Virus record (IMG/VR): IMGVR_UViG_2534682222_000010
Location: 1-7,832 of that record
DNA length: 7,832 bases
Source of the DNA: a virus
Taxonomy: Duplodnaviria > Heunggongvirae > Uroviricota > Caudoviricetes
Reading direction: 5' to 3' (one strand)
Part shown: positions 1-7,832 of the stretch, piece by piece
How the letters are laid out: every line of letters starts with the position of its first letter
How positions within the stretch are numbered: position 1 is the stretch's first letter
Made by a program: the position numbers and the translations under genes
Notes under the pieces: model-generated
The model's database searches: none
Told to the model about the DNA's origin: nothing
What the model saw: only the letters and a program-made list of their open reading frames with translations

Positions 1-484
1 GGTATGTGAGAATGTCAGCAATAGTATTTTTACCGATAATGTCACGTCCAACAGAAGTTAAATCAGTCTGCGCAGCTGTATCAGTTCCAGTGAAATACGG
101 TAATTTATTTGCTGCGCCCACTAACGCGGCTAACGCCGTCAATGTAGGATTCAGCGGCTGGAAGTTCCCAAGGATGTAGGACAGCGTTCCGGCCGTCATC
201 ATGTTTGCCGCAATGTCATTTGCTGACCACGCTCGTGGGACAGTTCCTTCCTGCCCACGCTGAATAGTAAAGACATCACCAGCCCGGGCAGTAACATGAA
301 CAATCTCCGTAAGAGAACCGGTTGTAGCATCAATCAGCGTCAGCTTAAAGAAACTTGTGCCTGATACCGGAGAAGGAAATAGTGCACCAGTTCCGGTATT
401 TAGTGTCAACGATGTTGCTGAGGCGCTAATGCCAGCCGCCAGAACGCTTTGAGCATTGTTAGCAGCTAAAAGTTGAAGTGCCAT
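1..484 (-). CDS. Phage tail fibre protein, N-terminal 161 codons (gene continues beyond window start)
   Basis: Minus-strand ATG at 484..482, preceded by GGAGGA (493..488) with a 3-nt spacer. Hand translation MALQLLAANNAQSVLAAGISASATSLTLNTGTGALFPSPVSGTSFFKLTLIDATTGSLTEIVHVTARAGDVFTIQRGQEGTVPRAWSANDIAANMMTAGTLSYILGNFQPLNPTLTALAALVGAANKLPYFTGTDTAAQTDLTSVGRDIIGKNTIADILTY is open to position 1. The stretch TLTALAAL..NKLPYF..VGRDI..KN..AD is a motif I recall from enterobacterial prophage side tail fibre proteins. Absent from the ORF track because it is truncated by the window edge. Confidence 0.75.
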   Translation of the reverse strand, partial: MALQLLAANNAQSVLAAGISASATSLTLNTGTGALFPSPVSGTSFFKLTLIDATTGSLTEIVHVTARAGDVFTIQRGQEGTVPRAWSANDIAANMMTAGTLSYILGNFQPLNPTLTALAALVGAANKLPYFTGTDTAAQTDLTSVGRDIIGKNTIADILTY

Positions 485-505
485 TTATCCTCCGGGATTC
501 GGGCA

Positions 506-534
506 ATAAAAAACCCGCCGAAGCGGGTTTGGTT
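506..534 (-). terminator. Intrinsic terminator downstream of ant (possibly bidirectional)
   Basis: Perfect 6-bp stem ACCCGC (513..518) / GCGGGT (523..528) with a CGAA loop. On the minus strand the hairpin is followed by TTTTTTAT; on the plus strand only by TTGGTT, so it is stronger for the minus strand. Confidence 0.6.
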
Positions 535-542
535 AACGATTT

Positions 543-1517
543 TTAGTTAATTACGAATTCTGCTTTAGCGCCGCGGAAGGAGATTGTTTTGTTTCCTGCC
601 CGCCGGCAAGCATCAGCAATTGCTTTCATGCCATATTCAATATTTGCCAGATGACTTCTCATTGCTACGATTTCAGCCTTAGGCGCTGATACGTCAAACC
701 CTGCCGCCTCAAGAATACTGATCAAGCGAATGGCGGACGATGTTGAATTGTCGCCACAGAGCATAGGCATAGTGACGTCCAGGGCAGGTGCACACATTGA
801 CTTTCCGAATGACAGGTTGCCACTGCGAACCACCGGATTGTTGTCAATCCACCACTGGAGAGGAAGGTTTACGTCAAACTTCGGTGTAGGGAGCGCCTCT
901 TGCTTTCCAAGAAACTCGCCTTCAATCGGTACGCGCGCCGCAATAGATAGCGCTTCGGTAAACTGGTCGTCGCTGATTTCTTTGTAGCTGCAACCAAAGT
1001 GGGATTTCAGTGATGACCACATAGTGATCATTGCCTTGGCCTGACAATCTTTCGGCAGTGCTTTACCACGGGTCATTACCAGTTGTTTGATCGCCTCCTG
1101 CTGCTCGGGAGTGATTTTACCTGGTAATGCCTTTTTCGCCTTGCGTGGGTTTTTGACCTCGCCTTTAGTCCAGTATTCGTAAAGCACATCGTCGCACTCC
1201 TCCTGATAGCGAATGACGTTATCGCGAATTCCTGGCCGTACTTTGTTAGGGCTGATGGTTTGGAGCCAGCCATTCAGTTTGCGTAACGCAAGGCAAAGCA
1301 TGGTTTGTTTACCCCCTTTCGTAGGGATCATGATTTCCATGACCCCTTTAGCAAACCGTGATTTCAGCTTATCGACCTGACCTTGATAGGTTAATCCCAT
1401 GCCATCAATAATTGGGCGCATTGGGGTATAAGCCTCACCGTTGTGCTCTACCACGAAAAGAGAATTTCCATAGAAAGGCACGTTGATTGTACGATCTGCA
1501 ATTGCTAAACTATTCAT
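543..1517 (-). CDS. ant: Phage antirepressor (Ant-like), 324 aa
   Basis: Part of track ORF 543..1607, but I place the start at ATG 1517..1515 (MNSLAIADRTINVPF...), which has AAGGA 7 nt upstream. The track start at 1607 lies inside the arc coding sequence in another frame and has no spacer after its purine run. The N-terminal half resembles the AntA/Rha-type antirepressor domain from memory. Location immediately downstream of an Arc homologue and divergent from an Mnt-like gene matches P22 immI. Confidence 0.75.
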   Translation of the reverse strand: MNSLAIADRTINVPFYGNSLFVVEHNGEAYTPMRPIIDGMGLTYQGQVDKLKSRFAKGVMEIMIPTKGGKQTMLCLALRKLNGWLQTISPNKVRPGIRDNVIRYQEECDDVLYEYWTKGEVKNPRKAKKALPGKITPEQQEAIKQLVMTRGKALPKDCQAKAMITMWSSLKSHFGCSYKEISDDQFTEALSIAARVPIEGEFLGKQEALPTPKFDVNLPLQWWIDNNPVVRSGNLSFGKSMCAPALDVTMPMLCGDNSTSSAIRLISILEAAGFDVSAPKAEIVAMRSHLANIEYGMKAIADACRRAGNKTISFRGAKAEFVIN

Positions 1518-1589
1518 TGTTAGTTCCTTGGTAGTTACTGACAAATTTGAAGCCCTGACTGTTGCTGCAGTTGGGGCTTCGTCGTTTCT
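1518..1589 (+). ncRNA. Candidate sar-like antisense RNA covering the ant ribosome-binding site
   Basis: Plus-strand candidate promoter inside the 5' end of ant: -35 TTGATT (1483..1488), 17-bp spacer, TG-extended -10 TGcTAAACT (1503..1511), predicted start near 1518. About 70 nt downstream is a hairpin plus U-rich tail (see terminator 1549..1589). The transcript would be complementary to the ant SD (1525..1529) and the arc-ant spacer. Inferred by analogy with P22 sar; not demonstrated. Confidence 0.3.
1549..1589 (+). terminator. Candidate intrinsic terminator for the antisense transcript
   Basis: Stem GAAGCCC (1549..1555) / GGGCTTC (1574..1580), with an inner ACTG/CAGT pairing (1558..1561 / 1568..1571), followed on the plus strand by GTCGTTTCT. 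On the minus strand it is followed by AAATTTG, so it is not a terminator in the mRNA direction. Confidence 0.35.
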
Positions 1590-1749
1590 ATGCCTTAATA
1601 AATCCATCTTCTTTCAAGCTCCTTTCTATACGTTTAATCACCTCACTGTTTACCGAGCGCCCCTCTTCTTTTGCTGCTTTCTTCAGGATTTCCTTCAGTG
1701 CATCAGGGAACCGAATGCCTGTTGGAGGGATGTTTCTTGCGTTGTGCAT
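1588..1749 (-). CDS. arc: Arc-like ribbon-helix-helix repressor, 53 aa (not in ORF track)
   Basis: Minus-strand ATG at 1749..1747 with AGGAGA (1760..1755) 5 nt upstream; TAG stop at 1590..1588. Hand translation MHNARNIPPTGIRFPDALKEILKKAAKEEGRSVNSEVIKRIERSLKEDGFIKA. Same length as P22 Arc and, from my memory of that sequence, shares the EEGRSVNSE core and C-terminal KEDG.I.A pattern. Sits directly upstream of ant as in P22. Confidence 0.85.
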   Translation of the reverse strand: MHNARNIPPTGIRFPDALKEILKKAAKEEGRSVNSEVIKRIERSLKEDGFIKA

Positions 1750-1771
1750 ATCATTCTCCTACTCAAAAAAA

Positions 1772-1784
1772 CTACATTATGTAG
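1772..1784. promoter_or_regulatory. Operator candidate 1: perfect 13-bp palindrome CTACAT-T-ATGTAG
   Basis: 6-bp arms around one central base. Embedded in a 17-bp unit ACTACATTATGTAGATT (1771..1787) that recurs exactly at 1828..1844. Lies just downstream of the candidate -10 of the arc-ant promoter, at the predicted transcript start. Confidence 0.6.
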
Positions 1785-1788
1785 ATTT

Positions 1789-1837
1789 ATAATTACAGCA
1801 TGTGTCTATTGCGTCAAGCACTTTTCGACTACATTAT
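1789..1837. promoter_or_regulatory. Candidate divergent, overlapping promoters (Pant-like on minus strand, Pmnt-like on plus strand)
   Basis: Minus strand: -35 TTGACG (1817..1812), 17-bp spacer, -10 AATTAT (1794..1789). Plus strand: -35 TTGCGT (1809..1814), 17-bp spacer, -10 CATTAT (1832..1837). The two -35 hexamers overlap on opposite strands. A perfect plus-strand TATAAT also sits at 1788..1793 but has no good -35. Hexamer assignments are by eye and uncertain. Confidence 0.3.
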
Positions 1838-1841
1838 GTAG
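1829..1841. promoter_or_regulatory. Operator candidate 2: identical 13-bp palindrome CTACAT-T-ATGTAG
   Basis: Second exact copy, centre 57 bp from the first. Overlaps the candidate -10 (CATTAT, 1832..1837) of the plus-strand promoter for the Mnt-like gene and lies upstream of the -35 of the minus-strand promoter. Confidence 0.6.
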
Positions 1842-1864
1842 ATTGTTGATTCTGAGGATGTAGC

Positions 1865-2197
1865 ATGAAAGGTGCCAGCTTGATAGCCCCGCTCGGGGTG
1901 AGGATCCCTGAAGATTTAAAGGAAAAAATCCAAGCCCAAGCAAAGGAAAACGGACGGTCGACTAACGCTGAAATCGTTCAAATACTCGAAAGTTCGTTTT
2001 CAAAGCTTGATGAAGGTGAAAACAATCGTTCGAATGAAACTTCAGGCCATTATCAATACTTACTGAGTATGAAGGATGAAATTATTGAGGCACAAAAGGA
2101 AACTATATCTCACATGGAAAACACTATAAATAGCCTCAGCGAGCACATTAACATTCTGAAAGATCATGTTGAGTTTTTGAAGAATAAGTACAAATAG
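1865..2197 (+). CDS. Mnt-like ribbon-helix-helix repressor with C-terminal coiled-coil extension, 110 aa
   Basis: Track ORF 1865..2197. ATG at 1865 with GAGGA (1854..1858) 6 nt upstream. N-terminus LGVRIPEDLKEKIQAQAKENGRSTNAEIVQILESSF fits the Arc/Mnt/MetJ pattern (beta-strand, helix, NGRS turn, helix). The C-terminal ~50 residues look coiled-coil-like with heptad-spaced hydrophobics. Divergent from arc-ant, the position P22 mnt occupies. Confidence 0.7.
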   Translation: MKGASLIAPLGVRIPEDLKEKIQAQAKENGRSTNAEIVQILESSFSKLDEGENNRSNETSGHYQYLLSMKDEIIEAQKETISHMENTINSLSEHINILKDHVEFLKNKYK

Positions 2198-2202
2198 CAA
2201 AA

Positions 2203-2220
2203 AGCCCACTGAAGTGGGCT
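2203..2220. terminator. Bidirectional intrinsic terminator between convergent genes
   Basis: Stem AGCCCAC (2203..2209) / GTGGGCT (2214..2220) with a TGAA loop. Followed on the plus strand by TTGCGATTT and on the minus strand by TTTTTGC. Lies between the stop of the Mnt-like gene (2197) and the stop of the minus-strand exported-protein gene (2231). Confidence 0.6.
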
Positions 2221-2230
2221 TTGCGATTTA

Positions 2231-2686
2231 CTACCATTGTTTTTTTAAATCGTCTTCTGTCATTTTTAATCTAAAAATATCTTTATATTTTTTTATGTAA
2301 ACTTCAGGGGATGCCCTGCACTTCATTTGAAAGTTTTTATCAAAATACTCCGTATTTCTTTTTATTCCTTCAACGGCGTCATTTTTTATCAACTCTTTAA
2401 CAATCATTCTGTATTCATCATGTGGGATAAGTAATATGTCACCAATCATATGGTCTCCTGAATACTGACCACTTACAGCATCATTTGCTGCATTGATGAT
2501 AAGCAAGGATGATGCAAAGCACATATTGTAAATATTTAGATCCGTTGGTTTCAACCCTGATTTTTTAATTTCATTTAACATCATTGAGTATTCTTCTTGA
2601 TCATTGGTTGGTAATGGAGCCGCCAACCCAACATGAACAGTTGAGAAAAAATACAAAAAACATGTTATTCCTATTTTTTTTATCAT
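2231..2686 (-). CDS. Hypothetical small exported protein with N-terminal signal peptide, AT-rich moron
   Basis: Track ORF 2231..2692, but the codon at 2692..2690 is GTG; the first ATG is 2686..2684, giving MIKKIGITCFLYFFSTVHVGLA/APLPTNDQ... (151 aa). N-terminus has a basic start, hydrophobic core and small residues at -3/-1, consistent with a signal peptidase I site; no lipobox. Two Cys in the mature part. By inspection the gene is much more AT-rich than the flanking baseplate genes. I recognise no family. Confidence 0.55.
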   Translation of the reverse strand: MIKKIGITCFLYFFSTVHVGLAAPLPTNDQEEYSMMLNEIKKSGLKPTDLNIYNMCFASSLLIINAANDAVSGQYSGDHMIGDILLIPHDEYRMIVKELIKNDAVEGIKRNTEYFDKNFQMKCRASPEVYIKKYKDIFRLKMTEDDLKKQW

Positions 2687-2733
2687 GCCCACTAACCCAG
2701 GTTATAAATGACTCGGAAGATAAGCATAACAAT

Positions 2734-3438
2734 TCAACCAATGATAGTCACGCTAACGGGTTGATAAAATGGCATGTGTAGCAGGCCGCTGTCAAACGCC
2801 TGCTTGAACAACGAAGCATATTCGTAGTTCGTGCTTTTTATCAGCAGGATTTTCTTCTGGTTGAACACCTGTGAATTGTAGGAAAATTTGTTGAACATGG
2901 AGGCATCAGTGAGTTTCCTGTACCCTTTGATGATCGATATGCTCGCCCCAGAATCAGAAAACAGAACCGAAATGCTCCACCTCTGATCGTTAACGACGTC
3001 TACGCCATCAACCCCTGTAAGAAACCTCATTATCCGGCGCTTTAACCATGGAATGGTGAAGTAATACCCGTCACCTTTATAGAAATTCCACGTCATGATT
3101 CGCTTAAACAGATCGTCTGAAACGACAACCTGCTCTGACTGATTAACCACCTTTCGCCCATTGAATGGCAACTGGTTGAACAGAACGGCGTTGTACGGGC
3201 CGAAAACGGATTGCTTTCCACTGACCAGCACCGGCGGCTTAACGCCATAAATCCCGCGGGCAATCCATTTTAACTGGTCACCAGCATTATACCCACCGAC
3301 AAAGATCGGAAGGTTGGCATTAATCATCCATGAATAAATTTCCTGAGCCATGGTATTATACGCAGTGACGAAGGCCTGTAGATCATCGTCGTCGTTATAC
3401 TGCGTATACAGATATGATTTAATTATATCTTCCAGCAT
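2734..3438 (-). CDS. Phage tail/baseplate protein, DUF2612 / gpI-like position (234 aa)
   Basis: Track ORF 2734..3456 starts on TTG; the first ATG is 3438..3436, one nucleotide after the TAA stop of the upstream gene (3442..3440). Lies directly after the baseplate-J-like gene, as in Mu-type and P2-type baseplate modules. Family call is from memory of DUF2612-type tail proteins. Confidence 0.55.
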   Translation of the reverse strand: MLEDIIKSYLYTQYNDDDDLQAFVTAYNTMAQEIYSWMINANLPIFVGGYNAGDQLKWIARGIYGVKPPVLVSGKQSVFGPYNAVLFNQLPFNGRKVVNQSEQVVVSDDLFKRIMTWNFYKGDGYYFTIPWLKRRIMRFLTGVDGVDVVNDQRWSISVLFSDSGASISIIKGYRKLTDASMFNKFSYNSQVFNQKKILLIKSTNYEYASLFKQAFDSGLLHMPFYQPVSVTIIG

Positions 3439-3439
3439 G

Positions 3440-4858
3440 TTATATCCCGTCGACAATTACCCCATTTGAGGCCATGTACCAGTAACTATATGGGTCACCG
3501 CTGATTATATTCGTACCGGCGTCAACGCCTGTGATAACGCCGTTCACAGTCACAATAACATTCAGGGTCGAGATCAGGCTCATATCGAGCGTGCTGTTAA
3601 TCGCCTGAAGAAAGACATCTTTGACGTTATTTATATTCATCGGCTTTCCTGCGAATATCCCGTTTACATAATTGATTACCGGTTGCGTCACCAGAGAGGC
3701 TATTGTCGCGTCTGTCAGGTAGTTCGCGCTTTCGGTTGCCCACTGAAACTTGATAGTCACCAGTTGCTGAAATGGTATAACAAACGGTATCAGGTAGTTA
3801 TCTGGCCAGTCGTTGACCGTAACCACATTATTCCTCAGGTTCGGCGTAACTATTCCACCACCAGTCCATGCGCCTGACGAGGTGGTATTGATGCCTATTG
3901 AGAAAGTGTGTGGACTTAACACGGTTATAGTGAGAGGGACGTTATTAATCCCGCTCATGCCGGTAACACCTGCGATATTAATTACCTGGCCAGAGCTGAA
4001 TCCGTGCGTGATGTCGGTCGTTACTACTCCTGGGTTCGCATTGGTGATCCCGGTGACGTTCAGGTCAGTCCCTTTTAGCCTGCTGATGTCGCCGGCTGAC
4101 TTATAAATGGCCCCGGCCATCTCATAGATATCGCCGCCGCCACACATAACAATCCAGGCATTACCGCTCTGAACAACGGAAACCAGACGAGCCTGGACAT
4201 TACTCAGGTCTGTCAATTTCTGGCGGATAAAGCCTGGATATCCCTGAACAGTCGACATCTGAGCTTCCCAGACGCGCTCGCGAAATTCGAAGTTAGTTTC
4301 AGGCGCACCACCTGGGGTGCCAGCAACCGGGTTGGTGCAGGTCAGAGTAATGCCAGACGGCAGGCTGGTCAGTATCTGATTAACCGATCCTACCGGTACA
4401 GCCCACGAACCAGTGTTTGTTGCAATGGCTGTTACCATCGAACTGACACCGGAAGACAGCACCACTGTCGCATCGGCGATCTGGTAGGTATACGTGCCAT
4501 CGCTGACCAGAAACCCCTGTGACACTACGAAGCCGACCGGGCCCTCAAACACGACAGGTACAGTTGTCGCCCCCTGAGTTTTTTGTTCGCTGATACCTGA
4601 CTGCTGGGCCAGAAGGTTCAGCATGTACATATTGGCTTTCAGCGGGCCTACGGAGTTGATGAGGTCGACACGAATCTGATCGGCAATGAGTAGCGCGCCA
4701 ACATCGGTACCGACGATATCCTCGATAAGTGATCCGGGGAGGTCCGTAGTGATGCCTGGTGATAATTCTGTGGCTCTTGAAACTAAGTCGGCGCGCAGCT
4801 CTTCGGATGTTTTCGGCACTGGCCCGGCTGCGTCATAGCTAACGGACAAATCACTCAT
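3440..4858 (-). CDS. Baseplate J-like protein (472 aa)
   Basis: Track ORF with ATG at 4858..4856 overlapping the upstream stop as ATGA. Size and position (after a ~110-aa gene, before the gpI-like gene and tail fibre) fit baseplate wedge protein J of Mu (gp47) or P2 (gpJ). Assigned by overall resemblance and synteny; unverified. Confidence 0.65.
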   Translation of the reverse strand: MSDLSVSYDAAGPVPKTSEELRADLVSRATELSPGITTDLPGSLIEDIVGTDVGALLIADQIRVDLINSVGPLKANMYMLNLLAQQSGISEQKTQGATTVPVVFEGPVGFVVSQGFLVSDGTYTYQIADATVVLSSGVSSMVTAIATNTGSWAVPVGSVNQILTSLPSGITLTCTNPVAGTPGGAPETNFEFRERVWEAQMSTVQGYPGFIRQKLTDLSNVQARLVSVVQSGNAWIVMCGGGDIYEMAGAIYKSAGDISRLKGTDLNVTGITNANPGVVTTDITHGFSSGQVINIAGVTGMSGINNVPLTITVLSPHTFSIGINTTSSGAWTGGGIVTPNLRNNVVTVNDWPDNYLIPFVIPFQQLVTIKFQWATESANYLTDATIASLVTQPVINYVNGIFAGKPMNINNVKDVFLQAINSTLDMSLISTLNVIVTVNGVITGVDAGTNIISGDPYSYWYMASNGVIVDGI

Positions 4859-5187
4859 ACGTTCACCGTTGTGATAATTTTAGAACCGGCGTTCGTAATC
4901 GCCGAAATGTTGTATACAGGCGGATCATCACTCACAATGGCGATCTGCAGCGATGAAAAATACGGACTAAATTGCCGCTGAAGCCTGTCGACATAGTAGG
5001 TAGGCAGCACCTGCTGAATAACAGAGCTCTGGGACGGTATGCCGTTGTTTGCAAAAAATGGTGACTCCTGCGGAGCCAGCTTGAGGTTCTGGATCAGCGT
5101 CGTCAGATAAATAGAATCATTGAAGCCGTTTTCATCCGGCACCACCAGCACCCACTTGCCATTTGCATCTCTTCCGTAGGTTCTCAT
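4855..5187 (-). CDS. Small baseplate protein in the gp25/gpW-equivalent position (110 aa)
   Basis: Track ORF; ATG at 5187..5185 overlaps the upstream stop (ATGA) and its own stop overlaps the next start. I do not see a clear gp25 signature in the sequence, so the call is positional only. Confidence 0.4.
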   Translation of the reverse strand: MRTYGRDANGKWVLVVPDENGFNDSIYLTTLIQNLKLAPQESPFFANNGIPSQSSVIQQVLPTYYVDRLQRQFSPYFSSLQIAIVSDDPPVYNISAITNAGSKIITTVNV

Positions 5188-5900
5188 TGCGTGATATTCC
5201 CGTTGAAAGTGGTGGTCGGGGCGCCAGTGTTTGAACCGCCATTCCCGTTTGTATGCTGATGGTTATTCAACCATGCGACCAGAGCTGCCCAGCCGGTATG
5301 CATAATCTCCGGGCTGGTGCTGGCGGTTGAATCCTGTAACTTCCCGCTCTGTCCTGTGATGCTCCACATTCCCTGGGTAAGGGTTAGAACGGTGCTACCG
5401 ACAGTGACCTTAAACAAATCGACGGCCGCAATCGTCACGCTGTCCGGAGTTAACAGAAACGTCGTGTTGCTTCCCTGGTCCCTGATAGTTACGCCCTCAG
5501 GTCCGTAGATAGTGACAACATTCCCGTCTACGGCTTCCCATTCAGTGTTGCTGATCGGCAGGTATACCAGGGCGCTAAGGTTGGCTGGAGGGGTCAGGTC
5601 GGCGATACCACCGCCCTGCCCGCTGACGCCGCCGAGATAGGTGTCGGCAGGAATAACAATGCCTTTATCACCCGGCTGCATCGGATAGCGGATGTACTGT
5701 GGACCAAAAAGCGGAATGGTGACATTCGGGAAAACATATGGGGTGTCGTGCAACTCGAAGGCCACGGTGACCATATTGCCATTCTGCTCAACAATGCTGG
5801 CGGGCAGGATTTTCCCGGCAGCCTGGAACGCCTCATTAAATTTCTGCTCCGCGAATCGGTTCATGTTCCGGCCGAAATTAAGCTTCTGGTCAACACTCAT
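5184..5900 (-). CDS. Baseplate central spike-like protein (gpV/gp45/Gp138-like), 238 aa
   Basis: Track ORF; ATG at 5900..5898 overlaps the upstream stop (ATGA). Position between the hub-like and small wedge-like genes; Gly/Thr/Asn-rich C-terminus typical of spike tips. Family call from memory and synteny. Confidence 0.45.
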   Translation of the reverse strand: MSVDQKLNFGRNMNRFAEQKFNEAFQAAGKILPASIVEQNGNMVTVAFELHDTPYVFPNVTIPLFGPQYIRYPMQPGDKGIVIPADTYLGGVSGQGGGIADLTPPANLSALVYLPISNTEWEAVDGNVVTIYGPEGVTIRDQGSNTTFLLTPDSVTIAAVDLFKVTVGSTVLTLTQGMWSITGQSGKLQDSTASTSPEIMHTGWAALVAWLNNHQHTNGNGGSNTGAPTTTFNGNITQ

Positions 5901-6919
5901 TTTGTCTTAACCGCCTCCGCCGGGTATGCCTCAATCACCGTGATCCACGCCTCTGCTGTCGGCTGCCTGCTGTTACCCAGCAACCTCACCGACTGAACGA
6001 CAAATTCGCCGTTAAACGCTGAGTCATCGCGAAACTGCGAGTAAGAGGATGCCTGAATCATCGGCCTGGCCTTTTCCGGCATCAGGATGTGATCGCCGGT
6101 CTGAAGGTCAGCGCGCATAACGCAGATGACGCTGACGACACCAAAGCTGATCCACGTTGGCTGACCTATCAGGTCATTGAAATTTATCTGGACAGGGTTT
6201 TTGCTCCTTCCCGTCGCGCTGGTTTTTGAACCCTGATCCGGGTGGTTGGCGTAGTCGTTATCCCACACCCGGATTTCGTTGCCATTGACCACGGCAATTT
6301 CCACCCCCGTATAGCCGGGGTCTTTGATGCGGGATAGCGAAAACGCCCTCAGGTTTTTTGCCAGCTCAGTGAGGGAGCCGCAAAACATGGGGCGATCGTA
6401 ATTCAGCGTCAGCCTGTCGCTGATGCTTATGTTCGGTGTAAATCCCCCCATCGTCATGACACATTGTGTCAGTGCTACGGAGAGTTTCTGCCCCATAGAC
6501 CATGGCATTGTCAGCTGGAGAGGAACCATTTGCCCGCGGGTTGTGGTGTTAACTGGACCAGAAACAATGATAAAATCAAGACGCATTTCTGTTCCTTGCC
6601 AGTTTCCGAATACCTGAAACACATAACCCTCAATAGCTAACTTTTTATTCCCCACGCCCGCCAGTGGGAGCCCTTTTGACATGCCAACAAAGATCTGAAT
6701 TTTTTTGCCATAGAGGTTCTGCCTTGCCTGCTGCATTTCTCTCGGCCCAATCCCCCATATTGTTAAATGGGTTTCACCCTGCGGGGTAGACTCTCCGAAC
6801 CTGAGAATGTCAAATTCAACCATCAAGGCGCCAGGGTTGTACGCTCCATTTTTATGACTGGAGTAGTGCTGGATGACTTTATCATTGCTATCAAGAATGT
6901 TTATCTCGTAATAACGCAT
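5897..6919 (-). CDS. Baseplate hub-like protein (Mu gp44/P-like position), 340 aa
   Basis: Track ORF; ATG at 6919..6917 shares one nucleotide with the upstream TGA (TGATG). Size and position immediately upstream of the spike-like gene fit a baseplate hub. Positional inference. Confidence 0.4.
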   Translation of the reverse strand: MRYYEINILDSNDKVIQHYSSHKNGAYNPGALMVEFDILRFGESTPQGETHLTIWGIGPREMQQARQNLYGKKIQIFVGMSKGLPLAGVGNKKLAIEGYVFQVFGNWQGTEMRLDFIIVSGPVNTTTRGQMVPLQLTMPWSMGQKLSVALTQCVMTMGGFTPNISISDRLTLNYDRPMFCGSLTELAKNLRAFSLSRIKDPGYTGVEIAVVNGNEIRVWDNDYANHPDQGSKTSATGRSKNPVQINFNDLIGQPTWISFGVVSVICVMRADLQTGDHILMPEKARPMIQASSYSQFRDDSAFNGEFVVQSVRLLGNSRQPTAEAWITVIEAYPAEAVKTK

Positions 6920-7194
6920 CAGCTTTTTACCTCAATCTGCCCGTTCTTTTCGCGCCAGATCATGGTCGTCGATGAGAAAACTCCACTTAAAAGGTTTATC
7001 CCCCCAGCAGATGTTGAACCTACGACGGCGGTATTCATGACCGTGTTGTCAGAACTATCAGTGATCAGCAGGTACCAACGCTGTGCGGCGATGTTCCACT
7101 TCATCTGGCAGGTATAAACGTTCCCGTCAAGAATTGGTGAGAACGTCACGCTACGCTGCTCTCTTCCAGTAAATGGATAATTGACGGTACTCAT
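6919..7194 (-). CDS. Hypothetical phage structural-module protein (91 aa)
   Basis: Track ORF; ATG at 7194..7192 overlaps the upstream stop (ATGA) and its stop overlaps the next start, so it is almost certainly translated as part of the operon. No family recognised. Confidence 0.45.
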   Translation of the reverse strand: MSTVNYPFTGREQRSVTFSPILDGNVYTCQMKWNIAAQRWYLLITDSSDNTVMNTAVVGSTSAGGINLLSGVFSSTTMIWREKNGQIEVKS

Positions 7195-7832
7195 ATCCCG
7201 AACGCCCCCTGGAGTTTACCTATCAGTCCAATTACCCCCTCCGCACTACTTGCTACTGCTCCACCTAGGGCGGTATTGCCAAGAGCTGATGCCGTATTTG
7301 TCCATGATGGTGCCTTATTAGGATCCCCGGCATCTATTCTCTTGAGGAAGTTGGTAACTGCTCTGTCAGCATCATTGGTGGTAATAAGTGGCTGCTCGAA
7401 ATCCCAGAGCCAGGACCGCTGAGGAAGCGGATCATTACCGGATGAGTTGTCCTTAACCGTTTTCAGGATGCAGTTGTTGTAGATAATTGACGGCGTGGCC
7501 ACGATGTAAGTCCCGCCCAGGTTGGCATGCGCCTGAAGCACCGCCTGCAGCGCGCTCAGTGTTACCAGTTTGGTCATAGCGCCAGTATTCTCGTTCACTG
7601 GCGCATCCATCATCAGGCTGACCCTCAGCGGCTGAGCCAGAAGCGCGTTGGCCGCGACGGTCTGGTTAGCGAATGGGTATTTAGCGATGTCATAGTCGAC
7701 CATCGTTGCGCCCTGAACAGGACGCCAGTGACAGAAATATTTATCCAGATCGGTAAGGTTGATTGCTCCTCCGATCAGCCCGGTTACAAAGCTGGCGCTC
7801 TGGGTTAGTGCCACTATGGGCAGCATGCCGCC
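7191..7832 (-). CDS. Phage tail/baseplate-associated protein, partial (upstream part probably outside window)
   Basis: Track ORF 7191..7826 (211 aa from the first ATG), but the frame stays open through the last two codons to the window end at 7832, so the true start may lie beyond the window. Gly/Ala-rich C-terminus. Positionally equivalent to a DNA-circulation or tape-measure-adjacent protein; unverified. Confidence 0.45.
   Translation of the reverse strand, partial: GGMLPIVALTQSASFVTGLIGGAINLTDLDKYFCHWRPVQGATMVDYDIAKYPFANQTVAANALLAQPLRVSLMMDAPVNENTGAMTKLVTLSALQAVLQAHANLGGTYIVATPSIIYNNCILKTVKDNSSGNDPLPQRSWLWDFEQPLITTNDADRAVTNFLKRIDAGDPNKAPSWTNTASALGNTALGGAVASSAEGVIGLIGKLQGAFGI

Follow-up and report, generated by a model that had tools for sequence, protein, structure and literature searches.

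This report concerns an antirepressor locus in a 7,832-nucleotide (nt) stretch of tailed-phage DNA (IMG/VR record IMGVR_UViG_2534682222_000010, positions 1 to 7,832), the whole of which we refer to as the window. Sequence comparison confirmed that the minus-strand interval 1588..1749 is a genuine Arc repressor gene, ordinary and already catalogued, and we consider it very probable that this gene belongs to an inserted "ant moron," window 513-2733, with a P22-type immunity-I (immI) control unit that would follow the Arc-sar-Ant scheme. Here, arc is the first gene of the ant operon and is divergent from an mnt-like repressor gene, a context conserved in all related loci. The spacer between arc and the antirepressor gene ant probably encodes a homolog of the P22 antisense RNA sar, and alignment places the ant start at ATG 1517. 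A real repressor gene and a small RNA are thereby added to the annotation of the window. The Arc protein was in databases and the P22-style system was known already, and the surprise is limited to a conserved start codon, at 1607, that overlaps the end of arc and is the sole point of possible specialist interest.

The arc open reading frame (ORF) consists of 53 codons plus a TAG stop, running from ATG 1749-1747 to TAG 1590-1588, and encodes a 53-residue ribbon-helix-helix repressor. As described in a first-pass annotation made from the sequence alone, it is preceded on the minus strand by a Shine-Dalgarno (SD) sequence, AGGAGA (1760-1755), with the 5-nt spacer "atgat" before the ATG; we calculated a duplex energy of -7.3 kcal/mol with the 3' end of the 16S rRNA. 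The gene was absent from the program-made ORF track because its 53 residues fall below the 60-residue listing default. Pfam Arc (PF03869) matched the product with an E value of 2e-12 (47.2 bits against a cut-off of 20.4), with residues 5-52 aligned on profile positions 2-49 of 50. In the PDB, the product matched the P22 Arc structure 1arq (E=1.2e-7, residues 5-52 versus 5-52) and the further P22 Arc chains 1baz and 1u9p. Direct alignment with P22 Arc, the check that the first-pass annotation had proposed for its assignment, gave 20/53 identical residues (38%) without a gap over 53 versus 53 residues, and the GRSVNSE turn was identical in the two proteins. An identical protein is present in NCBI as [quoted passage not shown] recorded on 224 contigs.

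The Arc assignment was further upheld by the conservation of the reading frame. A scan of viral contigs yielded 46 loci with full-length arc relatives (65-100% identity), and with two further loci the sample comprised 48 loci and 39 distinct DNA sequences. The arc frame was intact in 48/48 loci, at a length of 53-56 codons. Among the 39 distinct sequences, the ratio of nonsynonymous to synonymous divergence (pN/pS) was 0-0.35, with a pS of 0.4-0.96, synonymous differences being near saturation. These values indicate that the arc reading frame is under strong purifying selection. The possibility that 1588-1749 is a chance ORF was ruled out by the intact frames in all 48 loci together with the low pN/pS.

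Downstream of arc, ant in its canonical form occupies 543..1517 on the minus strand and encodes a 324-residue antirepressor. Its start codon, ATG 1517-1515, follows the SD AAGGAA (1529-1524) at a distance of 6 nt, and the predicted duplex of this SD with the 16S 3' end has an energy of -5.4 kcal/mol. The product carries the Pfam domain P22_AR_N (PF10547; E=6e-41; score 139.7 bits, cut-off 30.7) and the PHROG label "anti-repressor Ant." It aligned with P22 Ant at 41% identity over 212 residues, residue 1 to residue 1 (Ant residues 1-207). Residues 208-324 gave no alignment to P22 Ant, the similarity thus not being full length, and the C-terminal parts of Ant are swapped among relatives. A terminator-like site, AAACCCGCTTCGGCGGGTTT followed by TTTATT, lies after ant at 511..530 on the minus strand and represents a candidate intrinsic terminator.

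The ORF track had instead listed a 354-residue ORF (543..1607, minus strand). As the first-pass annotation had recognized, this ORF begins at an ATG inside arc that is out of frame with arc and in frame with ant. The ATG (1607-1605) lies within arc codons D48/G49 (GAT GGA), 20 nt inside the arc 3' end; it is one base off the arc frame (1749-1607=142) and 90 nt, or 30 codons, from 1517. Public records hold three lengths for this one gene. The 354-residue form, from 1607, is found in a metagenome-derived Caudoviricetes record (DAG28296.1) and in raw assemblies; the 324-residue form, from 1517, is present as the exact protein in NCBI and in several GenBank E. coli entries; and a 312-residue form, from a GTG at 1481, is found in most RefSeq WP_ entries in the 90% cluster of Ant.

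The reassignment of the ant start to 1517 in the first-pass annotation found support in the residue-1 alignment to P22 Ant and in the related loci. An ATG equivalent to 1517 was present in 26/26 loci inspected, and a purine-rich SD 6-8 nt before the ant ATG was conserved despite variable surrounding sequence. The most direct evidence came from the closest relatives, L021 and L022, whose Arc proteins are 100% identical to that of the window and whose Ant proteins are 74% and 95% identical. In both, a 2-nt insertion shifts the upstream frame out of phase with ant, and the TGA that closes this frame overlaps the ant ATG; therefore, Ant in these relatives starts at the canonical ATG. In several other relatives, the canonical ATG is likewise the sole possible ant start. 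The N-terminus of P22 Ant was reportedly determined experimentally by Sauer and colleagues in 1983. On the comparative evidence, ATG 1517 is a genuine ant start and the homolog of the P22 ant start.

The number of WP_ entries of 312 residues in the same 90% cluster and the start of the Pfam domain near this residue both speak for initiation at GTG 1481. Against it, GTG 1481 has no SD (duplex energy, +0.4 kcal/mol), and the corresponding Val codon is GTT or GTA in L052, L002, L003, L006, L010, L012, and L065, and therefore a start at 1481 is not conserved. Furthermore, ant codons 1-12 keep the pattern M-x-S-[IL]-A while varying synonymously, and similarity to P22 Ant extends back to residue 1. 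A 312-residue Ant is thus exceedingly unlikely, and the candidate was rejected for its missing SD and the varying Val codon in the seven relatives. The comparative data favor 1517 as the canonical start and strongly disfavor 1481.

A second alternative is that Ant is made solely from 1607, with the 354-residue ORF as the true gene and 1517 as an internal methionine. It draws on the conservation of ATG 1607 and its open frame and on the appearance of the long form in some annotations, namely DAG28296.1, the Ant of phage 2851, and the phrog_245 profile. However, the frame of the upstream ATG is not continuous with ant in L021/L022, L023, L025, L035, and L047, and the corresponding frame of P22, which offers no more than a TTG, closes 7 nt beyond the ant ATG. 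The SD before 1517 is conserved while the peptide that it would encode in the long frame varies; the 5' loop of the sar-like RNA is complementary to this same SD; and the P22 ant start is annotated at the ATG homologous to 1517. P22_AR_N begins at residue 12 of the short Ant, and therefore the extension lies outside the domain. Exclusive initiation at 1607 is accordingly a very unlikely account of ant expression, though a shade less so than initiation at 1481.

The arc-ant spacer, 1518..1587, measures exactly 70 nt, differs from ordinary coding DNA, and is filled by a candidate sar-like antisense RNA on the plus strand. Rfam sar (RF00262) matched the plus strand at 1517-1584 over the full model (1-68), scoring 46.9 bits (gathering score, 43; E=2.5e-7). 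The predicted RNA abuts the ant ATG at 1517 and has its 3' end at approximately 1587. It folds into two hairpins with a minimum free energy of -31.8 kcal/mol (z=-5.8). The 5' stem-loop presents UUCCUUGG, which is complementary to the ant SD AAGGAA, and the 3' hairpin (1548-1581) is followed by UCGUUUCUAU and is terminator-like only on the plus strand.

Conservation of the 3' terminator hairpin is supported by covariation. We analyzed 23 distinct homologous spacers, including that of P22, and confined the test to the 13-bp 3' hairpin, as the alignment over the 5' stem-loop was unreliable. Across these spacers 92% of the cells of the hairpin were paired, and 9/13 pairs showed compensatory, two-sided changes. 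None of 500 shuffles (0/500) matched the observed values, slid partner columns were 35-57% paired, and RNAalifold independently recovered the same 13-bp helix. The cells scored as not paired in columns 47-50 arise from misalignment by MAFFT of the upper stem in six spacers with a longer, bulged hairpin.

A putative sar promoter, Psar, was located at 1483..1511 on the plus strand, with a -35 hexamer TTGATT (1483-1488), a 17-nt spacer, and a -10 hexamer TAAACT (1506-1511). It lies inside ant codons 3-12, at ant nt 7-35, the interval of the annotated P22 sar promoter. Weighing against this assignment, the two hexamers match the consensus at 8/12 positions and fall below the threshold of the promoter scan. 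A TAnnnT-type -10 was present at the Psar position in 102/112 distinct loci compared with 19% at control positions, and Psar would on this comparison be active. Together, these data suggest that the spacer encodes a homolog of P22 sar, a well-supported added part of the locus, and no observation spoke against arc or sar as such; for P22 sar, the comparison drew on its RefSeq record and reviews (PMC7968456, PMC12197685). The best promoter-like site of the region is a different one, at 1383-1412 on the plus strand (TTGATA, 18-nt spacer, AATAAT; 10/12 matches); it is antisense within ant, approximately 105 nt upstream of the sar start, and could yield a longer antisense transcript. A link to the small RNA 24B_1 of a Stx phage (PMC10732415) was dropped, no sequence link being established.

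The same hairpin necessarily forms in the ant mRNA, and it could work on the sense strand, as an attenuator or stabilizer of the arc-ant mRNA, with no antisense RNA made. In favor of such a role, Rfam also returned a weak minus-strand match of 23.7 bits. In contrast to the plus-strand match, however, this score is below the gathering score; the minus-strand hairpin is followed by AAAUUUGUCAG, with no U run, and the terminator-like call is confined to the plus strand; and a promoter-like -10 is conserved at the P22 Psar position. We regard a sense-strand role without antisense RNA as improbable, and we retain the reading of the spacer as a sar homolog.

The first-pass annotation had held that ATG 1607 merely happens to be in frame with ant. 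This part of its account was not supported by the comparison of related loci, in which the ATG appears conserved rather than accidental. The leader frame, or upstream extension, spans 1518..1607 on the minus strand and leads from ATG 1607-1605, preceded by GGAG at 1622-1619, through 30 codons across the sar target and into ant. Several observations argue against 1517 as the only start of ant translation. In arc, Asp48 was encoded by GAT in 35/35 sequences with Asp, a synonymous site, compared with a GAT share of approximately 70% at other Asp positions of arc and the mnt-like gene. Arg43, also a synonymous site, was CGG or AGG in 34/35, and this codon choice keeps the GGAG 11 nt before ATG 1607. 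At other Arg positions NGG occurred in 0-14 of 39, the invariant residues Arg13, Arg31, and Arg40 are each encoded by four to six different codons, and the synonymous sites neighboring Asp48 and Arg43 are scrambled. Overall, 35/39 distinct arc sequences kept the ATG and 34/39 kept the GGAG.

The leader frame was also found to be open beyond arc. Between the arc stop and the ant ATG of 37 distinct loci, we counted 5 stop codons in the leader frame, 63 in the arc frame, and 30 in the third frame. The leader frame was stop-free over this interval in 32/37 loci. The leader reached the ant start, or a point within 15 nt of it, in 32/33 loci carrying the ATG, and the spacer length was 1 mod 3 in 29/37. 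In the 7 out-of-frame loci the leader stopped between positions -33 and +1, numbered from the ant ATG, and within 14 nt of it in 6, and three of these leaders ended as an ATGA overlap with ant.

The two candidate initiation sites were not distinguished by their ribosome-binding sites. AAGGAG before 1607 has a duplex energy of -7.9 kcal/mol, as strong as or stronger than the SD before 1517, and therefore the strength of the ribosome-binding site does not discriminate between the starts; the support that the first-pass annotation had drawn for 1517 from its ribosome-binding site thus does not set it apart from 1607. On the other side, the distance from this SD to ATG 1607 (10-11 nt for AAGGAG, 11 nt for GGAG) is long. 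The phrog_245 Ant profile has approximately 29 N-terminal positions that are matched by the extension, adding 37 bits (+37), from which it follows only that the extension is present in many phage Ants as annotated.

Two additional scans extended the sample to 112 distinct upstream regions, including loci in which unrelated repressor families lie upstream of ant. In several of these families an ATG in the leader frame was present 6-30 nt before the hairpin and close ahead of the stop codon, in genes whose products end in ...ANGQ, ...GDVVIQ, ...KNAQP, ...EKMFGA, or ...MQDAL, and in L187, with a non-arc upstream gene, stop and start overlap as ATGA. Cluster weighting was applied because the sequences are related, and it showed that the unweighted 63/5/30 count of stops had overstated the signal. 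After weighting, an ATG-started leader ORF reached the ant start in 0.33 of 29 clusters versus 0.06 and 0 for the other frames, and the rate of open ATGs was 0.38 compared with 0.16 at same-frame control positions in the upstream genes (binomial P=0.004; a naive count would have yielded a far smaller P). In contrast, the weighted fraction without stops was 0.70 in the leader frame compared with 0.53 in the other non-arc frame, the arc frame standing at 0.22. Likewise, ant was in the frame of the hairpin in 0.61 of 21 spacer clusters and, in a separate calculation, in approximately 0.40 of 29 upstream-sequence clusters, against 0.33 expected by chance. The arc-spacer module carries the in-frame state with it, and therefore the Bro-N, Rha, and KilA-N partners of this module are not independent observations. 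Also counting against translation from 1607, the leader peptide is not conserved, five members of this Arc family are without the ATG, and P22 carries just a TTG in the leader frame.

We therefore weighed a further possibility that would supplement rather than replace initiation at 1517, namely that translation also begins at ATG 1607, giving an extended Ant or a coupling leader. Initiation there would use GGAG 1622-1619 or, alternatively, reinitiation by ribosomes finishing arc, and it would couple ant translation to arc translation. Ribosomes from 1607 would read through the sar-target hairpin into ant and produce a 354-residue Ant with a 30-residue N-terminal tail; in relatives whose spacers differ by 1 or 2 nt, the leader would stop at the ant ATG and ribosomes would reinitiate. 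There are precedents for either outcome. In P1, icd is required for ant expression (PMC8201110), and both Ant1 and Ant2 are made (PMC8546580); in Gifsy-1 there is coupling of anrP to orf45, an ORF without conservation of its peptide (PMC12197685). On balance we hold this only tentatively and would put additional initiation at 1607 at somewhat worse than even. The same reserve applies to its generalization, by which P22-type immI cassettes may possess an unannotated translated leader that starts overlapping the last codons of the repressor, runs through the sar-target spacer, and is then either fused to the antirepressor or stopped at the ant ATG.

If the 1607 start is used, the classic sar/ant antisense model would gain an undescribed layer of translational coupling. 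Long and short forms of Ant would then exist here, like Ant1 and Ant2 of P1, and sar would act on a translated region instead of a simple untranslated ribosome-binding site. In P22 itself (L071 4008-4100), a TTG in the hairpin-defined frame follows GGAAGGG in the last arc codons, and its frame remains open as far as a TAG that lies 7 nt beyond the ant ATG. P22 may, from this arrangement, have a short leader ORF of approximately 25 codons. The spacer is 70 nt in the window versus 68 nt in P22, and therefore the frame that leads from the arc 3' end runs on into ant in the window and fails to do so in P22.

Upstream of arc, the control region contains a putative promoter, Pant, at 1789..1817 on the minus strand, with TTGACG, a 17-nt spacer, AATTAT, and a TG upstream of the -10; it scored 9/12 in the promoter scan. 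A TTGAC-type -35 was found at this position in nearly all related control regions. Two identical operator-like palindromes, CTACATTATGTAG, form direct repeat family D1 and lie 57 bp apart, one at 1772-1784 over the predicted Pant start site and one at 1829-1841 adjoining the mnt-like gene, and a degenerate copy lies between the Pant hexamers. The motif ACATnATGT recurs at equivalent places in related loci, and in L007 and L021-L066 there are three good copies of the palindrome: one beside mnt, one separating the Pant -35 from the -10, and one covering the start site.

The mnt-like repressor gene (1865..2197, plus strand) encodes 110 residues, comprising an N-terminal ribbon-helix-helix domain and a helical tail, and is divergent from arc in every related locus. 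Residues 12-47 of its product matched Pfam Arc (E=3.1e-12), and the protein is 39% identical to P22 Mnt over 38 residues. Past residue 47, no alignment of the tail to the C-terminal tetramerization domain of Mnt was found, and the sole other match was a weak, sub-threshold coiled-coil (DUF16). The predicted DNA-reading strands of the two repressors are nearly the same, P-T-G-I-R-F in Arc and P-L-G-V-R-I in the mnt-like protein. These near-identical strands, together with the identity of the two palindromes, suggest that both repressors read the same site. From the P22 precedent, the arc product would be a predicted operator-binding protein and a candidate repressor of Pant, and the mnt-like protein would likewise be a repressor.

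By analogy with P22, the locus would operate as follows. The predicted Pant (1817..1789, minus strand) would transcribe arc and then ant, and Arc would shut Pant off after a burst of expression. The mnt-like repressor would keep Pant silent in the lysogen, both proteins acting via the palindromes at 1772-1784 and 1829-1841. The sar-like RNA, approximately 70 nt long, would be made from the promoter inside the first ant codons, with its 3' hairpin serving as its own terminator, and its pairing with the ant mRNA may block initiation at ATG 1517. Transcription of sar and the translational block of ant are thus expected from the P22 model.

The gene order and orientation are those of P22 immI (mnt - Pmnt/Pant - arc - sar - ant). 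Both systems have a colinear, gapless 53-residue Arc with 38% identity; a spacer of approximately 70 nt filled by an antisense RNA, predicted here, whose 5' stem-loop opposes the SD and whose 3' hairpin is a terminator; a sar promoter, putative in the window, at ant nt 7-35; and an Ant with a P22_AR_N domain and a homologous start Met. In both, the unit is a moron located among late or tail genes (PMC2629481). In the P22 RefSeq record arc has 53 codons, sar is at 15021-15090, the ant ATG is at 15091, and the sar terminator adjoins the arc stop. The claim in the first-pass annotation that the 70-bp spacer has the same architecture as P22 was therefore correct in the layout and in the 70 nt measured here, but the P22 spacer on record is 68 nt. 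The systems differ in several other respects. The reading strand of P22 Arc is Q-F-N-L-R-W rather than P-T-G-I-R-F, and P22 Oarc and Omnt differ from each other whereas the operators here are identical CTACATTATGTAG palindromes. The mnt-like protein has 110 residues with an unrelated tail compared with the 83 residues of P22 Mnt, and the C-terminal half of Ant is not alignable with P22 Ant. Finally, the unit is carried here by a phage that possesses baseplate genes and does not belong to the P22-like podoviruses.

Cassettes of Shiga toxin (Stx)/lambdoid phages (phage 2851 and the Stx2a_WGPS phages) share approximately 72% DNA identity with window 897-1590, similarity that spans the ant 5' half and the spacer and ends at the arc stop codon. 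As here, an Arc-like gene lies upstream and the cassette is inserted among tail genes, but the Arc-like protein belongs to another subfamily, with 57 residues ending in ...ANGR. In the RefSeq record of phage 2851 (L002 1198-2202), Ant is annotated from the upstream ATG, with an 11-nt overlap with the Arc-like gene. The immI region of P1/P7 (c4 - icd - ant1/ant2) is likened to this locus by organization, not by sequence: an antisense RNA controls antirepressor synthesis, like sar, but c4 arises by processing of the same transcript and targets repeated sites in trans, and the system is without Arc and Mnt (PMC8201110, PMC8546580, PMC12197685). In Gifsy-1 orf45-anrP-IsrK, the antirepressor is coupled to a short upstream ORF of which the nucleotides are conserved and the peptide is not (PMC12197685); there, the RNA activates instead of represses, and the genes are unrelated.

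The ant-sar-arc-mnt unit, together with a 153-residue ORF, forms the 2.2-kb insertion at window 513-2733. Relative to an E. coli prophage with 87-89% identical flanks, it replaces 355 nt that hold a 97-residue ORF (L001 2014-2368). The cassette sits between a tail-fiber gene and baseplate genes. This position fits the ant moron of P22-like phages (PMC2629481) in a different kind of phage, one that possesses baseplate genes, and the window adds a further example of this mobile element. With 400-2300 as the query, Megablast gave no match in the phage collection, and a search in distant mode was needed; complete E. coli genomes shared the flanking tail genes but not the cassette. The 153-residue ORF (2231-2692, minus strand) is visibly A+T-rich, with a signal-peptide-like N-terminus, MGMIKKIGITCFLYFFSTVHVGLAAP, and matched nothing in Pfam or PHROG. 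This ORF is followed at 2201-2222 by a terminator-like hairpin, which on the other strand lies just past the mnt-like gene.

Two further observations concern the exchange of parts around the spacer. Among L024-L066 (for example, L029, L034, L044, and L049), one arc-hairpin-SD-ATG front end precedes four different antirepressor N-terminal domains, P22_AR_N, Bro-N, Phage_pRha, and KilA-N, and the junction between front end and domain is in the opening few codons, where the Psar -10 is located as well. In many P22-like contigs (L076, L079, L082, L089, L121, L123, L131, L142, and L143), non-arc genes end in a TGA that provides the first bases of the sar hairpin (..AGT TGA AGCCCC). The base of the hairpin therefore looks like a recurrent recombination junction.

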